DNA of 59,581 nucleotides, filler included, from Sphacelaria rigidula (Eukaryota), in NCBI GenBank assembly GCA_964200075.2. It is 6 parts of 6 records of this genome, joined end to end, with 100 filler letters (N's around TTAATTAATTAA, not from the genome) between each part and the next. Parts side by side here need not be neighbours in the genome. Positions count along the whole stretch, not along the records: positions 9,950 to 19,797 come from CAXNAA020007638.1; 5 more parts are not named here. One strand, 5' to 3'. How positions within the stretch are numbered: position 1 is the first letter of the stretch; every line of letters starts with the position of its first letter. Shown here one piece after another: positions 9,950 through 49,736 of the stretch. The notes under the pieces were generated by a model. The model saw only the letters and a program-made list of their open reading frames with translations, had not been told where the DNA came from and ran no database searches. The translations under genes were made by a program, and so were the position numbers.

Positions 9950-10230
9950 CGTGAACAAAGGTGGCATTAAATCATTTGATGCATCAGACAGTAGGGAGAA
10001 AACGATGGCTATACTAGGAGATGGATGGTGGTCACAGACGGCGAAACAGGACGGAGATGAGATATGTAAAGGGCTGTGTAATGAATGGAAGAAACGTAAT
10101 GAGCTGCGGAAAAAACGTAATGAGCGCCAGAATGTTGAAGGTGTCTCTATTAGGAGTAGGAACGGTGCTCCGTCTCGAACGGGATGCGTGGTCAATGGTC
10201 ACACGACTAAGGCAAGCAACAAAGAGTACG
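9950..10230 (+). mobile_element. 3' end of a LINE copy (same family as 10376-12695)
   Basis: Aligns with 12430-12695 (MNKGGIKSFDA..REKTMAILGD) and ends in gtcaatggtcacacgactaaggcaagcaacaaagagta. Confidence 0.88.
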
Positions 10231-10375
10231 CCTCTCCCCCGCGTTCCCCATCCACCCCATCCACCCCACCCCCGCATCCCTACTTCCAAAACTCCCACAT
10301 TCCACATGACGGCGAAAGCGAACATTCCGCATAATTTTTATCAAGTAGTTCAACTGAACTTGGAGATCACGCCAT

Positions 10376-12695
10376 GGGACACGAAGCAGAAAATATGGAC
10401 AAGGGGATAGCGACATTACGGGCAAAGAACGGTAAAATTGTCAGTACTTCGAAGGGGACGAGAGATGTGCTAGTAGAGCACTACCGTAAACTAGGGACAC
10501 CAAAAACTAACGCAAAGCTCGACACAGAATTCGAAAAAGAAATCAATGTTTGGGCAGAGGCCAATATAGAGACGTCAAAACGGGAGGATAGTGGATCCAA
10601 AGGATTGCAGAGAGAGTTTACCAGAGATGAAGTAAAGGAGCGTGTAGCTCAACCTAAAAGCAAAGAGGCAGCAGGGGCAGGCGGAACAGTGAACGAACTT
10701 CCAAAGCATGGGGTGGAAGGAATGATCACCATGATGGTTATGATGTATAACTGGGTATGGTAAAACGAGTACACGCCCAAGAGGTGGAGAGAAGCAGTAG
10801 TAGTCAATCTTTTCAAAAAGGGAGACAAGGATGACCCAGGAAACTATAGAGGGATAACGCTACCGAGCACGGTAGGGAAAGCATTCTGAAAGATTCTGAA
10901 CGATAGAGTAGGAACGATACTGGAAAAGGAAGAGGAGATCAGCGAGAGACAAGTACGTTTCGGACCAAACTGAAGTTGCTTAGACCACGTGTTGACACCA
11001 GGGAAAATTATTCCAGGTAGGAGAGACGCCGGGCTGACGACGTACTGTTTCTTTCTGAATGTATAAAAGGCTTATGACGCAGTATGAAAAAATGGACTGT
11101 GGTAAAAGTTGTGGGGAACTGGGATTAGAGGAAAGATGTGGAGAATGGTGAAGAAAATGACAGAATGTGCCAAAAGTGCTATGATGCTAGACGGGTAAAT
11201 ATCAAAATGTTTTGATGTTTTGCGAGGAGTCGCACAAGGATATACGTTCTCACTCACTCACTGTATTCAAGTTATTTATTCATGCCCTGATAGTAGCGAT
11301 AGAAGCAGCAAAGCAAGGAGGCAAGGTGGGTGGAGATATGGTATCAGGATTGATGTTCGCGGATGATTTTGTGGGGGTATCAAGAACACCAGAAGGATTG
11401 CAGAAACAAATTGAGAAGACGCTAGAATACATTGGAAATGGAGAGTGACAGCGAACGTCAACAAATGCGCGGTACTCGTCTGTAACGAAGGTAAAAAGAA
11501 TCCGGCAGAGTTCAATTGGAAGTGGGGAGAAGAGGAACTGCCGATCGTAGACCAGTACGCATACCTTGGCGTAGAGATTTAAAAAAACTGCTCTTGGGAT
11601 GCACACATAAATAAAGTAACAGAAAAGGGTAAGGCACAAAGAGGCGGGATGGACGTGATCCTCACAGATTCGCACCCAGACACCAGGATTGAGATATGTA
11701 TCCTGATGACCGTGATCGTACCAAAGCTAGAATATGCAGGAGAAGTACAGGAGGGGAACGTGAAGTTGTTGAAGAAGTTGGAAACAGTACAGATGGCAAC
11801 AGCTACGAAAATACGGGGGTGCTCGAAAACGATGAGTAATATAGCATTGAGAGCATAGTTGGGAATGTACTCACTTCAAACAGAGACATGAGGGAATTGC
11901 GATGGCAATATAGCGTAAAGAACACGCAGAGAAAGAGATTGCCAGCCATAGTTGATAGGGTTGTATGGAAGAAAAGTACGAAAGGGCAGGCTGGAGTAAG
12001 GTGGGATGAAGAAGTCGAAAGAGTATGGAAGGAGATAGGAGGAGACCAAAACGAAATACTGTTTATAGGTGAAGGCGCGGGGTACAAGGCTAAAGTAAGA
12101 GACATGATAGAAATAAGGGGGAAAGAAGCGCTCAGCTGCAAAATAGACGACGAAGAATACCTGAAGATATACGGGGGATGAGAGAGGGGATAGGGATAGA
12201 AGCATATTTGCATGACCCAATGGACGCGGCGAAAAAATTGAAACTGCGATTTCGGGTGGGGGACCTGGACCTGCCAGAAAGAATAAAGAGATATACCAGT
12301 AGTGTAGAGGAGGAAGTAAATGCACAGAACTACCCTGTGGCAAAGCGATAGAGAGCAGAACTCACATAATGTCAGAATGTGAACTATACAAGGAGAATCG
12401 GGACGTGCTAGAGGGGGCAGTGCGAGACATGAACGAAGGTGGCATCAAATCGCTTGACGCATTAGACAGCAGCGAAAAAACGATGGCTATACTAGGAGAT
12501 AGGTGAGTGGCCACAGACGGCGAAACAGGACGGGGATAAGATATGTAAAAGGTTTTGTGTAGTGAATGGAATAAACGTAATAAGCACATAAAATTTTGGA
12601 GGTGTCTCTATCAAGGGTAGGAACGGTGCTCCGTCTCGAAAGGGATGCGTGGTCAGTAGTCAAACGACTAAGGCAAGCAACGAATGCATTCACCC
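10376..12695 (+). mobile_element. 5'-truncated, pseudogenised non-LTR retrotransposon (LINE): reverse transcriptase plus C-terminal CCHC-like knuckle
   Basis: RT motifs YRGITL, KAYDAV, GVAQG, LMFADD and YAYLGV, then KLRFRVGDLDL and PCG..ESRTHIMSECELY. Many in-frame stops and frameshifts. No endonuclease domain is retained. Clade not determined (RTEX/L2-like is a guess). Confidence 0.93.
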
Positions 12696-12816
12696 CCCCC
12701 CCTCCCCCCCCCACCCTATCCACCTCACCCTTGCATCCCTCCGTTCAAAACTCCCACATCTCGCATGACTGCGCAAACCAACATGTCGCATTATTCTACC
12801 AAGCAATCGAACTAAC

Positions 12817-15800
12817 CTTGGAGATCACGCCATCAGGGATGAGTGATTTCCTCCTCCGCTTAGATCCAACCCGCCGTGGTTTATTGCTTGCACCTGTGGC
12901 AACCACCGTCTCGTTCTCCCGCACCTCCCGTCGTGATTGTTCCTCAGTCGCCTCCCCCCGCCCCTTCTCCTCGCTGCAGTCGACTTCCTTCCTGCTCCCA
13001 CCCGCCACTGCAGCCATCGCAACCGCCGACGCCGATGGTGCTCTCGCCGTCCCGGCTGGTGACTCCGCCACAACCTCCGTCGCTCCCCTTTCAGTCCGCT
13101 CTCCAGCCCACCGGTAGTTAGGCGCTCGACTGGCTGCTGGAGTGCGGCCCGGAGGCCGCCCGGCTCTCTTCCTCTTGCCCCCTGCAAGAGCGTCGGCGAC
13201 ATCAGCTGGCGCCGGCGCCGAATTTGTCGGGGTCAACGAGGGCTGCTGAGCTGATACAGCTGAAGACGAAGCATGGTCAACGCCGGGTGTAGCGTGATTC
13301 ATTCCCGCCGCCGTCGATGTTGCCGGTGCTTCCGTTGATGCTGTTGTTGCGCAAGACGGCATGTTGACGCTAGCCTCTACGCTTACATCTGCAGCAGGCT
13401 CGCCGCCGGCCAGGTGGGAGCTTGCGGAATTACTGCCAGCGACAGCGGGACCAGGAGAGGCCTCATCGTTCCCGGCTGCATAATCGCCGCTCTCGTGGCT
13501 TATCGTTCCTGCTCTCGACCTATGCAACCGGTCAACAGTTTCTAGCGGACTACACGCACGGAGCGTCTTTTCCGCCGTCCCTGTCGCAGCGGCCAGCGGT
13601 GACACTGAGCTTCGGCGCCGACGACTCCTACTGCTATCGGGTGGATTGCCGGAACGAAGGATACGCGGCGACGACACGGGTGAGCGTTTACAGCGCTTCT
13701 TCTTTCTTGACCCGGGCGGCGAACTCGAGTGCTCCCCTAATTGTTTCTGGGTAGCATATAACAGTCGCGCGATCGGGAAATGGGGGGCAGTAGCGGCGGG
13801 GGCGGCGCGACGCGGGGAGGGGGGCGTACTCATTTGTTGCTTGCCTTAGTCGTGTGACCATTGACGCGGGGAGGGGGGGCGAATTGGGGGACAGTTGTTT
13901 TCGGGAGCAAGAGAAGGGGTGGCGACATCAAGTCGTGCTTACGGTGTAATCAACGAAAAACAACCGCACTTGTCCATAGCCACCGCTGAATACACTTGCC
14001 TACAGCGGGGCATTGTTGTTGTGATAGCCCTATGGTTGGGGGAGAACAGCCTTACGAGTGGGGAATGTGATGGACACATTAAAAACGAAGGGTCTGATCG
14101 CTTGTTGAGCGACATAAAATGCCGTGCTTCTTACGCTCCACTGCTGCATACAACGACACCACGGCGTGTTGTTCGTCTCCCACCGGGTTGCTATCGGTAC
14201 GGTACAACCCTCACCAGACAAAACTCCAGGAGTTCCTTTCTGCTGCAGTCTTCCCCCGATCCCTCTAGCAATCGGGCGCACTCTTTCACCTCGTCTACAC
14301 TCACGTACCGCCCTGCAGAATACATGGTGCGGCGAACGAAAGCAACGAACCGCGCGTAGCGAATAAGACAGAAGAATACGCAGCAGCAACAACCAGCAAT
14401 CGCGTCATGACTGCAAAAACAAAACTCGACGCGCTACAGTAATCAGCCGCATGAGCAAAAGTCCTTTTAACACCCGGACACAATTAAATATGGCGCCCGA
14501 AACGCCCAAAGAGATTGTCGACTTACCCAGGGCAGCGCATAGATCAGCCGCCAGGCATGGCACCTGAAAATATTGACCGAGACCGCACATGCACCACGCA
14601 TGTATGAAGGAATGTCGGACCATTCGTCGATTCGTAGGCAACAAGATCGGCGTTGCCCGCAACATCCGCGTCAAAGAGTGCACACACCAGAGGATCAAGT
14701 TGATAAGGACAGCAACAAACACAAACAAGGCATACACACGAATGGAAGACGGGGGGGGGAAACGAGGGGAAAGGGGATCATTTAGAAATAATAAGGGTTA
14801 TAGCTAGGTGGTGAGGCAGCGCGGGTTACGACTGTGGAGGGTACGAGGAGGGCGGGCGAGAGCAGTCATGCAACCAGGTGTGGTTGGTGCATTAGTCATC
14901 ACCATTTGTGCCCCCCCCCCCCTCCAAATGGGCGGGGCAACAGCCGACGAATATTCACGTACTTGCTTGATCGAATTTCGCACTGCCATTTCGTACTGCC
15001 AGAATAACGAACCTCCCTGACAGTGTCGACACTTGTCGACCCTTTTCGACTCTCCGTCTTCAATGTATCAAACCATATGGTGCACATTTCTACCTTCGCG
15101 ATGACGTCATGCGGTATCTTGGACGCATTCCTTCGCCGACGCCTTGGTGTCTCCTCGGCACCCCTCACTCCCTCCGCCGCCGGCCCGCTACCCCACGCCG
15201 GAGAGGCCAAATTCGCGCCCTCGGTCGCGCCCGTCATCCTCCTTTTAGCCTTCAACTTCACCGTCCTTGCCGCCGCCGCCGGCGATGAACGGCAGTCGTC
15301 GTTTCTGTTTCCGCCGCCGCCGTCCACCCCACAAGTAGCGGTCGTCGACAGTGGGCCCATGTCGCTTGTCGGCACTGCGGCCGCCGTCGCTGCAGCCGAT
15401 GGTTTGGAGGAAGAGAGGATCCCACTCTCGGTCGTCACACCAATGAAATCACTATAGATCTCCCCCGTCACTTCGTTGGTATTGTTATGTACATGGTTGT
15501 TGTCGTCGTCGTTGTCGTCCGTAGTGGTGGTGGCCGTGACGGCGGTGACGTTGCCGTCGTTGTGGTTTTTGGTGGTGGTGGTGCTCCTGCTGCTGCTGTT
15601 CTCAGGTGCACGCCGTGCTTCGCTGCGGATGGCGTCGGCTTCTGATTGACATGCTGTTGACACCGCCGCTGCCGCGCCCGCGGATCCATTCAAATTGAGC
15701 ATACTGCTCTTACTGCTGCTGCTGCTGCTGCTGCCGGCAACTGAAGGGCGAAGGATACTACCCGTCGCCGTCGCTGCCACAGCCGCTGCTGAAGAGCAAT

Positions 15801-18800
15801 GGGCTGCACCACCACTCGTGCTAGAGTCGAGAGCAGCACCGCTCCCAACGGCAACAGCAAGACCACAAGAACCAGCAGGAGTGGCAGCAGTACCGGCTGT
15901 GCCGACATCGGGAGCAGAGCGCACTTCTACGTTACCGCCGCATGCACCGCTGCCGCTGCCGCTGTCACAACTGGCACGCTGTTCAACAACGTGATTGCCG
16001 CTGAGAGGCCTATTCCCTCGAGTTATAGTTTCGATACCATCAGCAGCACCGCCGCAAGCCGATCGCCGTCTCCTGTGACATTGGTCTCTCTCATTGTTTT
16101 TCTTTTTTCCGACGGCAGAAACATCAATGCTTCCCAGAGCGCTATCCCGGCAAGCAGTATCACCAGCATCAGCAGCGGCATGAATACCAACGAGTCGGAC
16201 GGGTGGCTCGGCGCTTACGCCGGACATTAAATCGGTATCTATCGCGGGGGCGGGTGACTGTTGCTTTTTTCGCCGCACGTCCTAAACATTGAAGACATGG
16301 TGAGGAAAGAACGGCGATGGTGTGGGGATATGAGTACAGCAGAGTGACGAGGCAGGGTGGGCGGGGGATGGGGGAAGACGCGGGCGAGACGCGGGCGGGA
16401 AGGGCTAACGATAGGAATACGGGTGAAGACGGCCCTCAGCGCCTACATCACATGTGTTGATATTACAATCTCATCGACATCATCAAAATATTGTAGCGGA
16501 GCATGAGCACCACGAGGCTGTTTGTGAATCGCAGAGAGCAAATGACAGACACGGGGTGGACAGCCGAGTAAGGAACAAGCCAAGGTGTCACGAATAGTAA
16601 GCACAGGATCACGGCCACTCCATGTCTATTTCGCTCACGAACAATCCACCACAAAATGACGCCGCCCGCCGCTGTTTAAAAGTACTCTAGGCTTGCGTGA
16701 GTCCACATCGCGCGCCCGCCAAAAGGGGGCAACGTGACCGAACAGATAGCGTCAGTAACGTCGCGTGCAGTATCACACGAGGCTTCACGAACGGAAAATA
16801 TTCATACGCGGCACCAAATGCGTGTTCGATGTGTGTGGCACAAGATGGCGCACCCAGAAAGCGAAACAGCAGGATCTTGGCACGTGGCAAAAAAGAGTGC
16901 ATGAAAGAAAATGGAAGGGTCGCCTGTGGGACATATGGGTCATATGGGGAATAAATCAGCACCCAGAGAGACAAAAAGAGCGCGACTTACCAGACACGCT
17001 GTCAAAAGTCTCCTGCTGTCCAAACCCTCGCCCAGACGGTCCAGCTCGCGTAGCCAAGCCTTTGCCTCAGCCGTAGACACCCCTCGCCCTGTTTTTTTGG
17101 TATAAAGAAGTTCAAACATGAATAAAAGATTCGTCGAGGAAATTTTCCGAGCACGGTCAAGGAAGGCGTCGCGTACAAGTCCCATATGCTAACAAACCCC
17201 CCATGGAGAAGCGCCCAAACGCGCAGCGCGATACAGTACATTGAGCTGTAGTCCCACACCGCATGCTAGGGTGCACACAAGCGGGGCAGGTCATCGAGTG
17301 CCGTGGCACAGTCCTTCTGTATGTCAAACTGCATGTTATGTGCAGTAGATGCACGCAAGGCTCCATGGCCCGGATCGCCACGCGTACAAACAAGCTGAAA
17401 TCAGGATGCATCTGACTCACCCAGCGCCGAGTGCAGATCAGCAACAAGCCGAGGGACCTGCCACAAAACGAAGAGCGTATCGATCGATATTGCACGACGG
17501 CCAAAGCCGCACAAAATGGGTAGGGCAAGGGGACAAGCATTATTTTAGCTAAACAAAGCAGGGCGGGATTACCATGAGCCATCTTGCCAGATGAGGAGCG
17601 GGAGTGTAGCCCGCGCGAAGCGGAAGAGAAGCATAGAGAGACAACTGTTGTGAAACACAATGGCCAAGTTGCTGCACGCGTGACGTGCGGATCTATCGTA
17701 GAATACGGTGTATGCGACCCGCACGTAGTGTTCGGCACCCCCGCCCTGAATAACACCGCTGGGTGACGAAATTTCTTCTCTTTCAACAAGATGTCGGTAT
17801 CTATCTACAGTACTGTACTAGGGTACGTAGTATACCACACCCTGAAGGTCACTACAGGGTTATGGTTTCAGGTCCCAACATTTTATCATCCGGGGGTCGT
17901 TAACATCGTATTCTACGCTGAACGCCTGGAAGTATCCATCACATCTTCATCTTCAGCTCTCGCAGCGTCGGAGGTATGACCGAGTACGTTGAAAAACAAC
18001 GCGCGGCACTACACGCGCTCGGAAAAGCCACGAAACAACACCCGAGGGACAATGCATGCTTCGATAAATTAGAGCCTACGACGGCTACCGCAATACCCCA
18101 AAGAACGCTCGGATGCGGTAAATACTATTAGAATAACGACCAGCGATCGTCTGCCACCCCCCTCGGTCTGTATCATGTATTTACTTCATATTGGACCGCT
18201 TCTTATACTCTGAAATTGGACTCTCTGAGAACTGCCCTTCCTGAGCCTTTCATCGCGAATTTTGGCCAAGGTCCGTATTCCGCCAAAACTCTGTGATGAG
18301 AGGCTCAAAAAGGGCAGCTCTCAGAGAGTTCGTTTTCAGACTCTAAGAAGCAGTCTTAGCGTGGCGTCGCCCACGAACGGTAGGTTTCCATGTCCCTGCT
18401 GCATTTTCGGCGTCTCCGCTAGGAGAAAAAAAGAGGCACACATATCCATTACCTTCGCCATAACCTCAGGTGGAAACGTCGCCGCGTTCCGTCGCCGAAT
18501 CCTCCTCCCACCGCTCGATAATGCCTCATTGCCCTCAACCACCCTCGCACCACTGCTCGCGCCTGTACCCTCGTCTCCAGCCCGATCGCCGCCGAAGCCC
18601 ACTCCTTCATCCTCTCTGCTACTAGAGCCACGCTCATGAGAACGAGTCGAAGGGAACGAAGTGGGGGAAGATAATGAACTGATGCTTGCACCCCGCACTG
18701 CTTCCTCTATCGCCGCTTGCACCGACAGTGCTTCCTGGACCAACCACGGCGCACTAGGCGTTGGGGAGTCATTGGACGGGGTGGCAGCAGCACCTCCTCC

Positions 18801-19718
18801 GCTGCCATTGCCGACGCTGGACACGGACGTCCTCGGTACCGGTGAGGAGATCGAACACTCTTCAATTAGGCTGGCAGCCGCCGACTCCGTTAGTTCGGGT
18901 GGTGTTGGTACCGGGCTTGCAGCAAAGTAGTCCTGGTCTCCTGCAGCTGGGGAGATGGGACAACTGTCAGCTACTCCTTCAGCTGCTAAAGCAGACATGG
19001 TACGCTTGCTGGTTGGTGACTTCACGCTCGGGCTCGTCGTTGTTGCACCAAAGCTGTACTGCCCTTCTGCTTGGAATGACGGTAATATGTTCGCTGACGT
19101 TGACGGTAGCGACGGTAACAACCAAATCGGAGCTTGTTGTATTTTCTCAGCTGGCTCGGGCGACGGTGGCGTATTTTGCGTCGAGGCCGTCGACAGAGGT
19201 GTTGGAGCGGTGGTTGTGTCCGTGAAGGGGGCGGGACGAGGAACACGGTTACTGCTACTGCTGCGATTGCTGCTCGATACCGTTGAAGTGGTGATGGATG
19301 CGAACAACACCGGGGCACCGCTGTTCGTTGGGGACGGTGGTGGCTGCGGCTGTGGCGTTGCAAACCGTTCTGTCGGAGGCTTTAGCCTTTTAGATGGCGA
19401 TGGTGAAGAAGGACTTCGCGCCACGGCCGCTTCCACCAGCATCACCAGAGGGCTTGCACATGTGGAAATGGTGGTGGCTCGCAAGGGAGACCCAGCTACC
19501 GCCGCTTTCGCCCTCACCATAGCTGCCTGGGCCACACGGGTTTGTTTATCTGCTTCGTCGATTGTGGTGGTCCAGTTCGCGCTCGGTGCGTTTAGTAGTG
19601 GCCACAGAGCTGTGGGCTGGGGTGGCTCTGCTGGCAATTGAGGCCGGTGTTGTTTATCTTCGTTGCTGGTGTCACCGGGGGAGGAGATGACGCTGTTGCT
19701 GGATCCTGCTGTAGGCAT
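12817..19718 (-). CDS. Uncharacterised multi-exon gene with a repeated ~65-aa helical domain separated by S/A/T/P-rich linkers (partial; exons 19718?-18453, 17457-17421, 17088-16991, 16281-15094, 14563-14527, 14312-14215, 13746-12817)
   Basis: All internal boundaries are GT-AG and keep one open frame (37+98, 1188, 37+98, 930 nt). The three large exons end in RRR..(I/F)P..V(I/M)(A/S)K at phase-0 donors. The two 37-nt exons encode VPRLVADLHSALG and VPCLAADLCAALG. The two 98-nt exons encode RGVSTAEAKAWLRELDRLGEGLDSRRLLTACL and RYVSVDEVKECARLLEGSGEDCSRKELLEFCL. The 5' boundary is uncertain. Confidence 0.82.
13827..13862 (-). mobile_element. 36-nt LINE 3'-terminal insertion with ~18-bp target-site duplication
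   Basis: Reverse complement of the LINE terminus (atggtcacacgactaaggcaagcaacaaatgagta), flanked by direct repeats gacgcggggaggggggcg (13809-13826) and gacgcggggagggggggcg (13863-13881). Confidence 0.8.
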
Positions 19719-19797
19719 TATGAAGGAAGTCAACGGGGGGGGGGGCAGGACGCAGTTGGTCCTTGCCCTAGTCATGAGCATAGTGCGCGCCCACACC

Positions 19798-19897
19798 NNN
19801 NNNNNNNNNNNNNNNNNNNNNNNNNNNNNNNNNNNNNNNNNTTAATTAATTAANNNNNNNNNNNNNNNNNNNNNNNNNNNNNNNNNNNNNNNNNNNN
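19798..19897. other. Artificial contig linker
   Basis: N44-TTAATTAATTAA-N44. Confidence 0.98.
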
Positions 19898-20320: not shown

Positions 20321-20707
20321 GTTCGCGTGCAAAGCCATTGGCTTTAAAGCTTATTTTGCTATTTGGGTAGTAAAGCACGTGGTATTCTGAGCATTGTCAC
20401 GCTCCCTTTTTTTGCGGTGTGGAGAGGCCCACTCGCGGGTTGGCAAAGAAGACGGACTTGCTCGCTGTAACATCTTCCTGGTGGCGGTGTCGCGACGTTC
20501 AGCACGGTGGCCTGTTCACGCTCTTCTTGGTGATGATGGTAGACACACTTGAGTTTCCAAGATACTCAAGTTTACGACAGGGCGTCAGAGGGAGATATGT
20601 CACCACAAAGATGGGTTCTAGAGAGTGTTGATGTGTACCGATGACCTGGGTTGGAAAAGGAGCACCCGGGGTCCTTCGTAACAATCTCGAGCATTTTTGT
20701 GGGGTCT

Positions 20708-21962
20708 CACGAGCGGGTGGCCACCGGGTAGGCGCTCTGGGACATTGGGGATCTTCTATTAGCGCTGGGTCGGCCAGTGTATTGACTCGATGACGAGTAA
20801 CAGCGCGCAGTCGTTTCCTCCGGTCGAAGTGTGACGGGCGCGTGCAAGCACAAACGCGCACTTTCGAGTAGATGGAATATTCTGCAGTACCGTGGTGGTA
20901 GAGTACGAAGTTGGTCGTAGACGTATGCGCATGTAACCTTGTGTGTTGCATCTGCCCGACACGCCAAGACTTGATCCTACCAGCAGCTAGCCACCACGTC
21001 GGCGCTCTGGGACATTGGGGAATCTTCTGTTAGCGCTGGGTCGGTCCATTGACTCGGTGACGAGCAACAGCGCGCAGTCGTTTCCTCCGGTCGAAGCGTC
21101 AAGAGCGCGTGCAGACACAAACACGCAATTTCGAGTAGATGAAGGTTCTGTCATATCATAAATGGTAAAGTTCAAAGTTGGTCACCGAAGCATGCGTGTA
21201 CGAAAACTGTGTGTTGCGTCTGCCCGACACGCCAAGACTTGATCGCACGAGCAGCTGGCCACCGCGTCGGCGCTCTGGGACATTGGGGACCTTCTGTTAG
21301 CGCTGGGTCGGCCAGTCCATTGACTCAGTGACGAGGACCAGCGCGTAGTCGTTTCCTCCGGTCGAAGCGTGTAGGGCGCGTGCAAACACAAACGCTCACT
21401 TTCGAGTAGATAGATAAAGATTCTGCAGTACCGGAGTGGTAGAGTATGAAGTTGGTCATGGAGGTATGCGCTTGTAAAAGCTGTGTGTTGCACTCGCCTG
21501 ACACGCCAAGACTTGATTGCACGAGCAGCTGGCCACCGCGTCGGCGCTCTGGGACATTGGGGACCTTCTTTTAGCTATGGGTCGGCCAGTCCATTGACTC
21601 GGTGACGAGGACCAGCGCGTAGTCGTTTCCTCCGGTCGAAGCGTGTAGGGCGCGTGCAAAGACAAACGCGCACTTTCGAGTAGATAGATGAAGATTCTGC
21701 AGTACCGGAGTGGTAGAGTACGAAGTTCGTCACCGAAGTATGCGCGCTTGCTTGTGAAATTGTGTGCTGCACTCGCCTGACTTGCCAAGACTTGATTGCA
21801 CGAGCAGCTGGCCACCGCGTCGGCGCTTCGGGAAATTGGGGATCTTCTGTTAGCGCTGGGTCGGCCAGTCCATTGACTCGGTGACGAGGAGCAGTGCGCA
21901 GTCGTTTCCTTCGGTCGAAGCGTGAAGGGCGCGTGCAAAGACAAACGCGCACTTTCGAGTAG
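20708..21962. repeat. ~270-bp satellite, about 4.6 copies
   Basis: The unit gagcagctggccaccgcgtcggcgctctgggacattgggg...ctttcgagtaga starts at ~20710, 20982, 21249, 21523 and 21802. Confidence 0.93.
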
Positions 21963-22046
21963 AAAATCGTATTTTACACAATGGACAACGTGGAAGAAGT
22001 GGAGTCGTCAAATCCATCCTCAATTGCGTCAAGACCAATTCGTAAG

Positions 22047-29744: not shown

Positions 29745-29844
29745 NNNNNNNNNNNNNNNNNNNNNNNNNNNNNNNNNNNNNNNNNNNNTTAATTAATTAA
29801 NNNNNNNNNNNNNNNNNNNNNNNNNNNNNNNNNNNNNNNNNNNN
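29745..29844. other. Artificial contig linker
   Basis: N44-TTAATTAATTAA-N44. Confidence 0.98.
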
Positions 29845-39691: not shown

Positions 39692-39791
39692 NNNNNNNNN
39701 NNNNNNNNNNNNNNNNNNNNNNNNNNNNNNNNNNNTTAATTAATTAANNNNNNNNNNNNNNNNNNNNNNNNNNNNNNNNNNNNNNNNNNNN
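39692..39791. other. Artificial contig linker
   Basis: N44-TTAATTAATTAA-N44. Confidence 0.98.
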
Positions 39792-49636: not shown

Positions 49637-49736
49637 NNNNNNNNNNNNNNNNNNNNNNNNNNNNNNNNNNNNNNNNNNNNTTAATTAATTAANNNNNNNN
49701 NNNNNNNNNNNNNNNNNNNNNNNNNNNNNNNNNNNN
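49637..49736. other. Artificial contig linker
   Basis: N44-TTAATTAATTAA-N44. Confidence 0.98.

Follow-up and report, generated by a model that had tools for sequence, protein, structure and literature searches.

A spliced gene of repeated exon modules in Sphacelaria rigidula probably encodes a chromatin-associated protein with an unrecognised repeat domain

Introduction

Do three long, low-complexity open reading frames on the minus strand of a Sphacelaria rigidula contig belong to one working gene and, if they do, what might its product be? They lie within a stretch of 59,581 nucleotides, here called the window, and had been read in an earlier note as parts of a hidden multi-exon gene. The question carries some interest beyond this one alga, brown algae being a group in which complex multicellularity evolved independently and whose lineage-specific genes mostly lack recognisable domains. 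Our main reading, to which we attach a probability of about 0.7, is that the locus holds the middle of a spliced gene of repeated modules, encoding a nuclear, chromatin-associated scaffold, the scaffold role being the part that we infer.

Exon structure of the gene

Sequence reading shows that the three large exons, designated L1, L2 and L3, share a common ending on the minus strand, at 18453, 15094 and 12817 respectively. In each, a basic cluster is followed by [FI]P-x2-V-x-[AS]-K and then by GT, the exon termini being RRIRRRNAATFPPEVMAK in L1, RRRRRNASKIPHDVIAK in L2 and KRRRKSLIPDGVISK in L3, each directly before its GT. After each of the first two come a 37-nt exon and a 98-nt exon, every one of which is bordered by AG and GT; the exons and their roles are as follows.

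18453..19706, minus strand: large exon L1, internal and S/A/T/P-rich, with an open frame; contigs colinear over 18451-19706 in 3/3 RNA-like runs; its last 18 codons specify the basic arm of repeat 1 and the N-terminal half of its helix 1
17421..17457, minus strand: 37-nt microexon m1 (VPRLVADLHSALG-), with AG/GT borders and also found in public model P0001; supplies the latter half of helix 1 in repeat 1, starting in phase 0 and ending in phase 1
16991..17088, minus strand: 98-nt exon n1, helices 2 and 3 of repeat 1; contig pieces 16990-17087
15094..16281, minus strand: large exon L2, a low-complexity linker that runs into repeat 2 with its basic arm and half-helix; open frame
14527..14563, minus strand: 37-nt microexon m2 (VPCLAADLCAALG-), with joints that each have a 36-letter side; in public model P0019
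14215..14312, minus strand: 98-nt exon n2, helices 2 and 3 of repeat 2; joints 14311 to 14526 and 13746 to 14215
12817..13746, minus strand: large exon L3, which closes with the basic arm of repeat 3 and its half-helix; contig pieces 12814-13746 in 3/3 RNA-like runs

All six introns run from GT to AG, and joining the exons with phases 0, 1 and 0 yields 1214 codons in one frame, uninterrupted by a stop. The common exon ending, the sizes and phases of the short exons and their in-frame splicing, all proposed in the earlier note, were thus confirmed. Its third large exon, by contrast, had been taken to run from the ORF start at 13845, which is not an exon start: L3 begins at 13746, at the acceptor cccag/AAACAA. 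The rest of the repeat 3 module falls outside the window, and neither a third 37-nt exon nor a third 98-nt exon is present anywhere across it, the search including a family HMM run on the six-frame translation, in which n1 and n2 scored E 2e-17 and 5e-11.

The two complete modules were compared with one another. Their paired introns gave no blastn match below E 0.2. Identities between m1 and m2 at codon positions 1, 2 and 3 were 10/13, 10/12 and 4/12, and those between n1 and n2 were 20/32, 16/32 and 11/32; conservation lowest at third positions is a pattern that fits coding selection.

Evidence for splicing and expression

Transcript evidence came from runs X1, X2 and X4, all of one study, and X5 served as a DNA-like run; the first three are termed RNA-like since their type is guessed, as it is for four small runs in all, none being recorded as RNA. 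The joins n1-L2 (16280 to 16990), L2-m2 (14561 to 15092), m2-n2 (14311 to 14526) and n2-L3 (13746 to 14215) are each carried by one spliced contig in X1, in X2 and in X4 and by none in X5, where a 5925-nt contig is instead colinear with window positions 13837-19745. The L1-m1 and m1-n1 joins are missing from the listed joints, and we infer them from the 36 unplaced contig letters that lie, in all three RNA-like runs, between pieces 18451-19706 and 16990-17087, and from public model P0001. In all three runs each spliced contig extends over more than 2 kb with 0 other letters. With these contigs the junctions predicted by the earlier note, and with them its multi-exon gene of repeated large, 37-nt and 98-nt exons, were borne out.

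The match between contigs and genome stops at 19706. Since the contigs leave the genome here, with an acceptor at about 19706, the ATG at 19718, which had been proposed as the start codon, is intronic and outside the transcript. Two RNA-like contigs continue on the 5' side for 470 and 503 nt past 19706, and on the 3' side RNA-like contigs continue for 351 nt past 12814, in each case with sequence that is off this contig. Window positions 12817-19706 belong to an expressed nuclear gene of S. rigidula that is spliced from repeated modules, and they cover its middle part.

It might be argued that there is no working gene behind the module: composition alone could account for the long ORFs, or they could belong to a pseudogene or a transposon. 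The exons are of low complexity (A 15%, S 14%), high-copy repeat fragments lie on either side of L3 (12652-12702 and 13815-13865), and a retroelement-like repeat adjoins the L3 donor:

10376..12816, plus strand: high-copy retroelement-like repeat, intronic, directly after the L3 donor
12817..12833, no strand given: last 17 nt of L3, with an exact copy at 10359-10375 across the repeat element

The 3' part of this element recurs at 9952-10358 with 78-89% identity, and an ORF at 11191-11448 contains an FADD motif; its five ORF fragments, searched for a reverse-transcriptase domain such as a non-LTR retrotransposon would carry, had no Pfam match at E up to 0.1. The 17-nt copy matches at 17/17 positions and the adjoining 23 nt at only 15/23, and the duplication reads as a target-site duplication. 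Word depth in X5, however, is 10^3-10^5 for the element and about 25 for the gene, which is accordingly single-copy, unlike the repeats. Against noise or a pseudogene stand also the exact spliced contigs of three runs, with joins absent from X5, the 1214 open codons, the third-position divergence and the positional orthologues that both repeats have in another brown-algal order. We regard this explanation as close to refuted.

Public models and relatives

The gene had been described as hidden, a description that does not hold. Two partial models without a name, P0001 and P0019, lie on the same 9848-nt S. rigidula contig and contain repeats 1 and 2, and the public protein set already includes orthologues from four further brown algae, which are equally nameless. 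P0019 is present letter for letter within the spliced 1214-codon model and crosses the n2-L3 joint as ...EFCL/KQLGEH. P0001 and P0019 are one gene, continuing on other contigs. The public models are corrected here in a further point, three predicted introns within L1 being backed by no RNA contig.

Repeat 1, searched by phmmer among 1.84 billion representatives, had 27 matches at E<=1e-3, of which P0023 and P0027 look spurious. Ten of the 27 were looked up, and those with a name were from Pylaiella, Scytosiphon, Ectocarpus, Laminaria and Sphacelaria, all brown algae, the rest of the ten being without a name. A word-based search with alignment A1 returned two Ectocarpus proteins and missed the known member P0003, and is not informative on spread. 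The accessible parts of the literature on brown-algal BAH domains, brown-algal microexons and four family accessions hold no description of the family.

The Pylaiella littoralis orthologue, P0002, is full-length. At 2297 aa it puts in perspective the size of more than 1200 aa suggested earlier, which corresponds to the gene middle alone, and its five repeats (376-441, 1028-1093, 1315-1381, 1636-1700 and 1743-1801), which precede a C-terminal beta-barrel, agree with the earlier count of at least three copies. Window repeat 1 pairs best with Pylaiella repeat 1 (41/53) and window repeat 2 with Pylaiella repeat 2 (31/53), compared with 26/53 for repeats 1 and 2 inside the window. Between window and Pylaiella the linker agrees at 125/383 positions; shuffled linkers agreed at 102-119 of about 380. 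The sequence comparison thus shows a predicted three-helix unit conserved position by position with P. littoralis and linkers that are not conserved, as the earlier note had supposed of domain and linkers; it follows that the repeats predate the split of the Sphacelaria and Pylaiella lineages.

The exon organisation is another matter. At least nine contigs from elsewhere read straight through the 37-nt and 98-nt parts of repeat 1 in a single uninterrupted ORF. The three-exon module therefore stands for Sphacelaria and falls as a general rule: it is not fixed among the relatives. The 37-nt microexon would then mark an intron that is present in both of these old Sphacelaria repeats and absent from repeat 1 elsewhere in brown algae and, if so, a datable intron loss or gain.

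Fold of the repeat

The repeat models as a three-helix bundle of about 55-65 aa, in line with the helical domain of about 65 aa that had been anticipated. In the model of P0004 the helices span residues 16-33, 39-52 and 58-72, with pLDDT 74-90 over residues 11-70 and a whole-model pTM of 0.36. Behind this model stands an alignment of 20 sequences, most of which are repeat-1-type fragments that lack the first half-helix. Since A1 is made of whole proteins, not excised repeat copies, both its profile and the model alignment are dominated by such fragments. Mapped on the predicted fold, the phase-0 intron splits helix 1 and the phase-1 intron falls in the loop after LG, ahead of helices 2 and 3. 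The conserved face of the repeat reads S-x2-E-A-K-A ... L-D-R-x-G-E.

The domain is unrecognised by Pfam, PDB sequences and fold libraries, as the earlier note had expected. No Pfam family matched the 65-aa repeat, and none recurred among 20 members, at E up to 10; single exons, five orthologues and all members of A1 and A2 likewise gave no usable Pfam match. Among PDB sequences nothing was found below E 0.4 with the repeat, alone or with a profile, and nothing below E 0.03 when the repeat, the A1 and A2 profiles and P0002 were all considered. Foldseek with the repeat model gave a best E of 1.4, its fold matches being at noise level, and ESM Atlas offered no usable match by features, with structure rows (Rex N-terminal, NDK and others) all below threshold.

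These searches bear on whether the repeat is a very diverged version of a known small helical domain, its gene then being nothing more unusual than known parts arranged in a lineage-specific way. Candidates include an EF-hand pair remnant, MLLE, the RMI1 N-terminal three-helix bundle and a SAP- or DEK-C-like domain. The EF-hand had been raised as a lead in the earlier note, which must now be dropped. We searched two window and ten orthologue cores with the pattern D-x-[DNS]-x-[DNSG]-x5-[ED], a 12-residue loop after the PROSITE-type consensus, and the canonical calcium loop was missing from all 12. Neither the 65-aa repeat nor any of 20 family members matched a Pfam EF-hand model at E up to 10; Foldseek rows for EF-hand chains had non-significant E of 1.6-4.9, those for troponin C, calmodulin, MTIP and calcyphosine having E 1.6-4.6 and probability <=0.15, and none of these four stood in the VIA top 50. 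With Pfam, PDB profile and Foldseek searches all against it, descent from a known domain seems to us unlikely.

Less likely still is that the module is a DNA binder of homeodomain or HTH type, with its arm in the groove and its three helices on DNA, which would make the protein a multi-site binder or transcription factor. The cores are acidic to neutral, with pI <=5.2 in seven of the 12 and above 8.9 in none, and helix 3 has no conserved basic residues in A1. Homeodomain, Myb and HTH matches were absent from Pfam at E up to 10, and homeodomain-like or HTH membership was rejected; no fold match rises above noise.

A possible role at chromatin

Returning to the reading of the product as a nuclear chromatin-associated protein, one element is found in the window itself:

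13144..13176, minus strand: AT-hook-like KRKRAGRPPGR in L3, from sequence reading; it has a G-R-P core, not R-G-R-P

In Pylaiella, the linker between repeats 2 and 3 of the orthologue contains KRKRGRPKK. The other element is the C-terminal domain which, like the remainder of repeat 3 and repeats 4 and 5, is seen in orthologues only, the HMM on six frames finding neither in the window. For this barrel the best structural matches, with moderate scores in two independent searches, are BAH domains; the model was that of P0034, a distant relative (E 3e-3) with six sequences in its alignment. Pfam BAH (PF01426) matched none of six members at E up to 10, and for P0002 and P0003 a Pfam search up to E 1 yielded one chance row and nothing else. 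In alignment A2 a W/Y is conserved within the V-H-W-Y-T-P and G-G-W-S-G motifs of the orthologue C-terminus, residues relevant to a possible aromatic cage for methyl-lysine.

A barrel of BAH type together with AT-hook-like and basic motifs is a typical combination of chromatin proteins. The basic clusters, the AT-hook-like motif and the BAH-like end of the orthologues make a nuclear role plausible, in keeping with the nuclear location earlier thought probable. In the mechanism that we propose, the basic arms and the AT-hook-like motif would touch DNA, the C-terminal barrel, known from orthologues only, might dock on nucleosomes, and the mostly acidic three-helix modules on their flexible linkers could act as multivalent protein-binding sites.

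More tentatively, and with rather less than even confidence, we suggest that the repeat forms a separate domain family restricted to brown algae and serves as the multivalent binding module of a lineage-specific chromatin scaffold, in which five such modules are joined to a BAH-like reader and AT-hook contacts. If true, a piece of chromatin machinery would have been invented within an independently multicellular group. A disordered, probably nuclear protein that carries an orphan domain is a modest biological surprise. What has been gained is a defined family anatomy, in which a conserved three-helix module, present in five copies in the full-length orthologue and mostly preceded by a basic arm, is combined with an AT-hook-like motif and a probable BAH-type C-terminal reader; this turns an 'unnamed protein product' into a chromatin-protein hypothesis testable in Ectocarpus, for which genetic tools exist.

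Comparison with known systems

The EF-hand pair of calmodulin and centrin may resemble the repeat in its short helix-loop-helix build and G-E-G/D loop, and EF-hand chains occur among the Foldseek rows, but the repeat lacks the 12-residue calcium loop and a Pfam EF-hand match. MLLE/PABC and the RMI1 N-terminal bundle appear as fold rows tied with dozens of unrelated ones, at identities of 8-15% and with no sequence-profile support. The closest comparison is with the brown-algal orthologues, P0002 from Pylaiella, P0003 from Scytosiphon promiscuus, P0005 and P0029 from Ectocarpus sp., and P0004 and P0031 from Laminaria digitata, none of which has a name, a Pfam domain or a described function. They share with the window gene the repeat motif, the basic arm, the low-complexity linkers and a helix motif, APWLV..A.S.KAAIEEAV, ahead of repeat 1; P0002 has its five repeats and C-terminal barrel where the window has two and a half repeats. 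Beyond brown algae, the best structural matches of the orthologue barrel are the BAH readers of plant EBS/SHL/AIPP3, DNMT1 BAH1, BAHCC1 and ORC1.

Exon structure and splicing

On the minus strand between 12817 and 19718 lie three long open frames rich in Ala, Ser, Gly, Pro and Thr, each of which ends in an arginine cluster followed by [FI]P-x2-V-x-[AS]-K and then GT. The first two of these large exons (L1 to L3) are each followed by a pair of small exons.

17457-17421 and 14563-14527, minus strand: 37-nt exons (m1, m2), after the first two large exons, AG/GT flanks
17088-16991 and 14312-14215, minus strand: 98-nt exons (n1, n2), next after the 37-nt exons, AG/GT flanks

In these endings and in the exact positions of the small exons the sequence agrees with the earlier note. 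All six introns are GT..AG. The third large exon, L3, starts at 13746 (acceptor cccag/AAACAA); a start at the beginning of its ORF was rejected, the contigs described below placing the border at 13746. With corrected borders the exons join into an uninterrupted reading frame of 1214 codons, and the window contains no third 37-nt or 98-nt exon, nor any further domain of the family. The intron after L1 holds, at 18200-18440, an imperfect inverted repeat (ctgcttcttagagtctgaaaacgaactctctgagagctgccc ... gggcagttctcagagagtccaatttcagagtataagaagcgg) that looks like a small foldback element.

The gene is expressed and spliced. Eight sequencing runs contain the stretch, including four small runs from one study in which 0.45-0.48 of the sampled words were present, near the stretch's exonic share. 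Contigs from three of these (X1, X2 and X4, presumably RNA) and from one run that contains the stretch in full (X5, DNA-like) were compared with 10400-19797. The joins 16280 to 16990, 14561 to 15092, 14311 to 14526 and 13746 to 14215 occur together on one contig in each of X1, X2 and X4, with no other letters; read along the plus strand each is CT..AC, hence GT..AG on the minus. None occurs in the X5 contigs, one of which (5925 nt) is colinear over 13837-19745. RNA would be expected to yield just such contigs, free of introns and missing from the DNA-like run. The L1-m1 and m1-n1 joins lie outside those listed and were read from the 36 contig letters separating the pieces 18451-19706 and 16990-17087 in all three RNA-like runs, which indicate a 37-nt exon once ambiguous border letters are counted. 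Of the six introns proposed earlier, four are spanned by listed joins and two follow from this gap.

The proposed gene start at 19718 has to be abandoned: the contigs part from the genomic sequence at 19706 (ctacagcag/G), so that the ATG is intronic and more 5' exons exist. Two contigs run on for 470 and 503 letters past this point without a match to 19707-19797. On the 3' side all three extend 351 letters past 12814, so the donor at 12817 is in use, and the exon that follows begins with GTT, as expected of a Val-Pro microexon.

Public gene models

Although described earlier as hidden, the gene is already annotated, as two unnamed fragments. A protein search with L1 returned P0001 ('unnamed protein product, partial', Sphacelaria rigidula), and a second partial model, P0019, lies on the same 9848-nt contig, which equals the second stretch of the window. 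The latter is letter-for-letter part of our spliced model, whereas P0001 shares with it only a 108-residue block because it treats three short stretches within L1 (18453-19706) as introns; it also passes through the n1 donor without splicing (...TACLVSR). The RNA-like contigs, by contrast, keep L1 colinear throughout in all three runs and splice at 16991. The family is thus present in public protein sets, yet unnamed and undescribed: literature searches (brown algae with BAH domain or microexon; protein accessions) found no description of it.

Relatives and conservation

When repeat 1 (65 residues) was compared by phmmer with 1.84 billion representatives, 27 proteins reached E<=1e-3; inspection suggests that two of these are spurious, P0023 being a coiled coil and P0027 carrying another repeat. 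Five of the ten matches looked up are named (Pylaiella littoralis, Scytosiphon promiscuus, Ectocarpus sp., Laminaria digitata and Sphacelaria rigidula), every one an 'unnamed protein product'; the domain is so far seen in brown algae only.

The Pylaiella relative, of 2297 residues, has five repeats. Repeat 1 of the window is closest to its repeat 1 (41/53) and repeat 2 to its repeat 2 (31/53), while the two window repeats match each other at 26/53. The inter-repeat linker, at 125/383 against 102-119 of about 380 for shuffled sequence, aligns no better than chance. When the window's two modules are compared, codons differ most at their third positions, and the introns in corresponding places show no relationship. 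Together these observations argue that the repeats are old and under purifying selection, with the linkers free, as had been proposed. Noise, a pseudogene or a transposon in place of a working gene is highly improbable beside the selected repeats and the spliced contigs.

At least nine short matches (P0006-P0011, P0014, P0016 and P0017), from genomic-looking contigs mostly without an organism name, read uninterrupted through the 37-nt and 98-nt parts of repeat 1 as Q/VPRL...LG-R-G-VST...LLEACL/V, bounded by Q/ and /V. P0021 is continuous from VPRL through the entire next linker to ...IPESVIAK, and so is fused with the following large exon. These relatives indicate that the intron after ...AK is general and that the microexon-making one is not; the latter is therefore not common to all brown algae. 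In Sphacelaria both old repeats carry it, at an identical phase-1 position.

The three-helix domain

The repeat is modelled as three helices. AlphaFold2 was given the Laminaria fragment P0004 and 20 sequences of the family, an alignment consisting mostly of repeat-1-type fragments since whole proteins were aligned, and placed helices at 16-33, 39-52 and 58-72 (block pLDDT 74-90 across residues 11-70). Helix 1 is coded on both sides of the ...AK/VP... intron, the loop that follows LG is interrupted by the phase-1 intron, and helices 2 and 3 both lie within the 98-nt exon.

The domain is unrecognised, as claimed: Pfam searches with the repeat and family members gave chance rows only, PDB sequences (profile search included) nothing below E 0.4 for the repeat, and Foldseek with the repeat model a best E of 1.4. 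Set beside these searches, a very diverged known helical domain seems unlikely. With a cleaner alignment such searches might extend further. The suggested resemblance to EF-hands fails at the defining loop, which occurs in none of 12 repeat cores, and in Pfam, which lends no support.

Arms, AT-hook-like motifs and the C-terminal barrel

A basic arm (at least 4 Lys/Arg in the 15 residues upstream) precedes 9 of 12 repeat copies; the cores are mostly acidic (pI <=5.2 in 7/12). A homeodomain-like DNA binder, to which three helices behind a basic arm might point, is with such cores more doubtful still than a diverged known domain. Seven of the 12 arms contain an R-x-x-S-type site, a lead only, read from the arm listing. 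The Pylaiella linker carries an AT-hook-like KRKRGRPKK, and the window a comparable motif.

13176-13144, minus strand: KRKRAGRPPGR, AT-hook-like, in exon L3

The orthologues share a conserved C-terminal region (V-G-E-F-V-V-F-P ... P-F-L-L-G-K-V ... V-H-W-Y-T-P ... G-G-W-S-G), whose relatives are only brown-algal or without a name. P0034, the most compact of them, is modelled as a beta barrel plus helix (core pLDDT 87-90). Since no family member matches the Pfam BAH model or a PDB sequence, and Z in the structural comparison is below the bar of 8, the predicted barrel is termed BAH-like rather than BAH. By analogy with these orthologues, Sphacelaria would possess the same C-terminal part.

Repeat elements and neighbouring stretches

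10376-12816, plus strand: high-copy retroelement-like repeat, 2.4 kb, abutting the L3 donor
9952-10358, plus strand: 3' end of the same element in a second copy, 78-89% identity
9850-9949, 19798-19897, 29745-29844, 39692-39791 and 49637-49736: linkers N44-TTAATTAATTAA-N44, joining six stretches of 9845-9849 nt

The 3'-terminal 17 nt of L3 (12817-12833) recur exactly at 10359-10375, on the far side of the 2.4-kb repeat, a pattern that looks like a target-site duplication. The donor used by the mRNA (AAG/GTTAGT) would in that case take its GT from the final two bases of the inserted element, the older copy's end giving AAG/TTCAGT instead; if true, a transposon supplied the donor site where the exon originally ended. 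Inverted fragments of the same high-copy repeat flank L3 (12652-12702 and 13815-13865, 51 nt, 82% complementary), and 10191-10223 is 100% complementary to 13833-13865 over 33 nt. Word depth at the flanking fragments exceeds 30,000 in the RNA-like runs.

Stretches that adjoin here may lie apart in the genome, which means that a gene cut at a border cannot be traced beyond it. In the stretch after that of the gene, at about 20500-22010 on the minus strand, several overlapping ORFs contain the peptide-like units RLCLHAPYTLRPEETT and SQWTGRPSANRRSPMSQSADAVASCSC at least three times, pointing to a tandem repeat some hundreds of bases long.

Proposed role

The most likely role for the protein is that of a chromatin scaffold in the nucleus. 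The basic arms and AT-hook-like motif would contact DNA and the C-terminal barrel, which in Sphacelaria is presumed from orthologues only, could dock on nucleosomes, while the five three-helix modules, acidic and joined by flexible linkers, may offer multivalent protein-binding sites. The overall kind is familiar: a lineage-specific repeat within a disordered nuclear protein.
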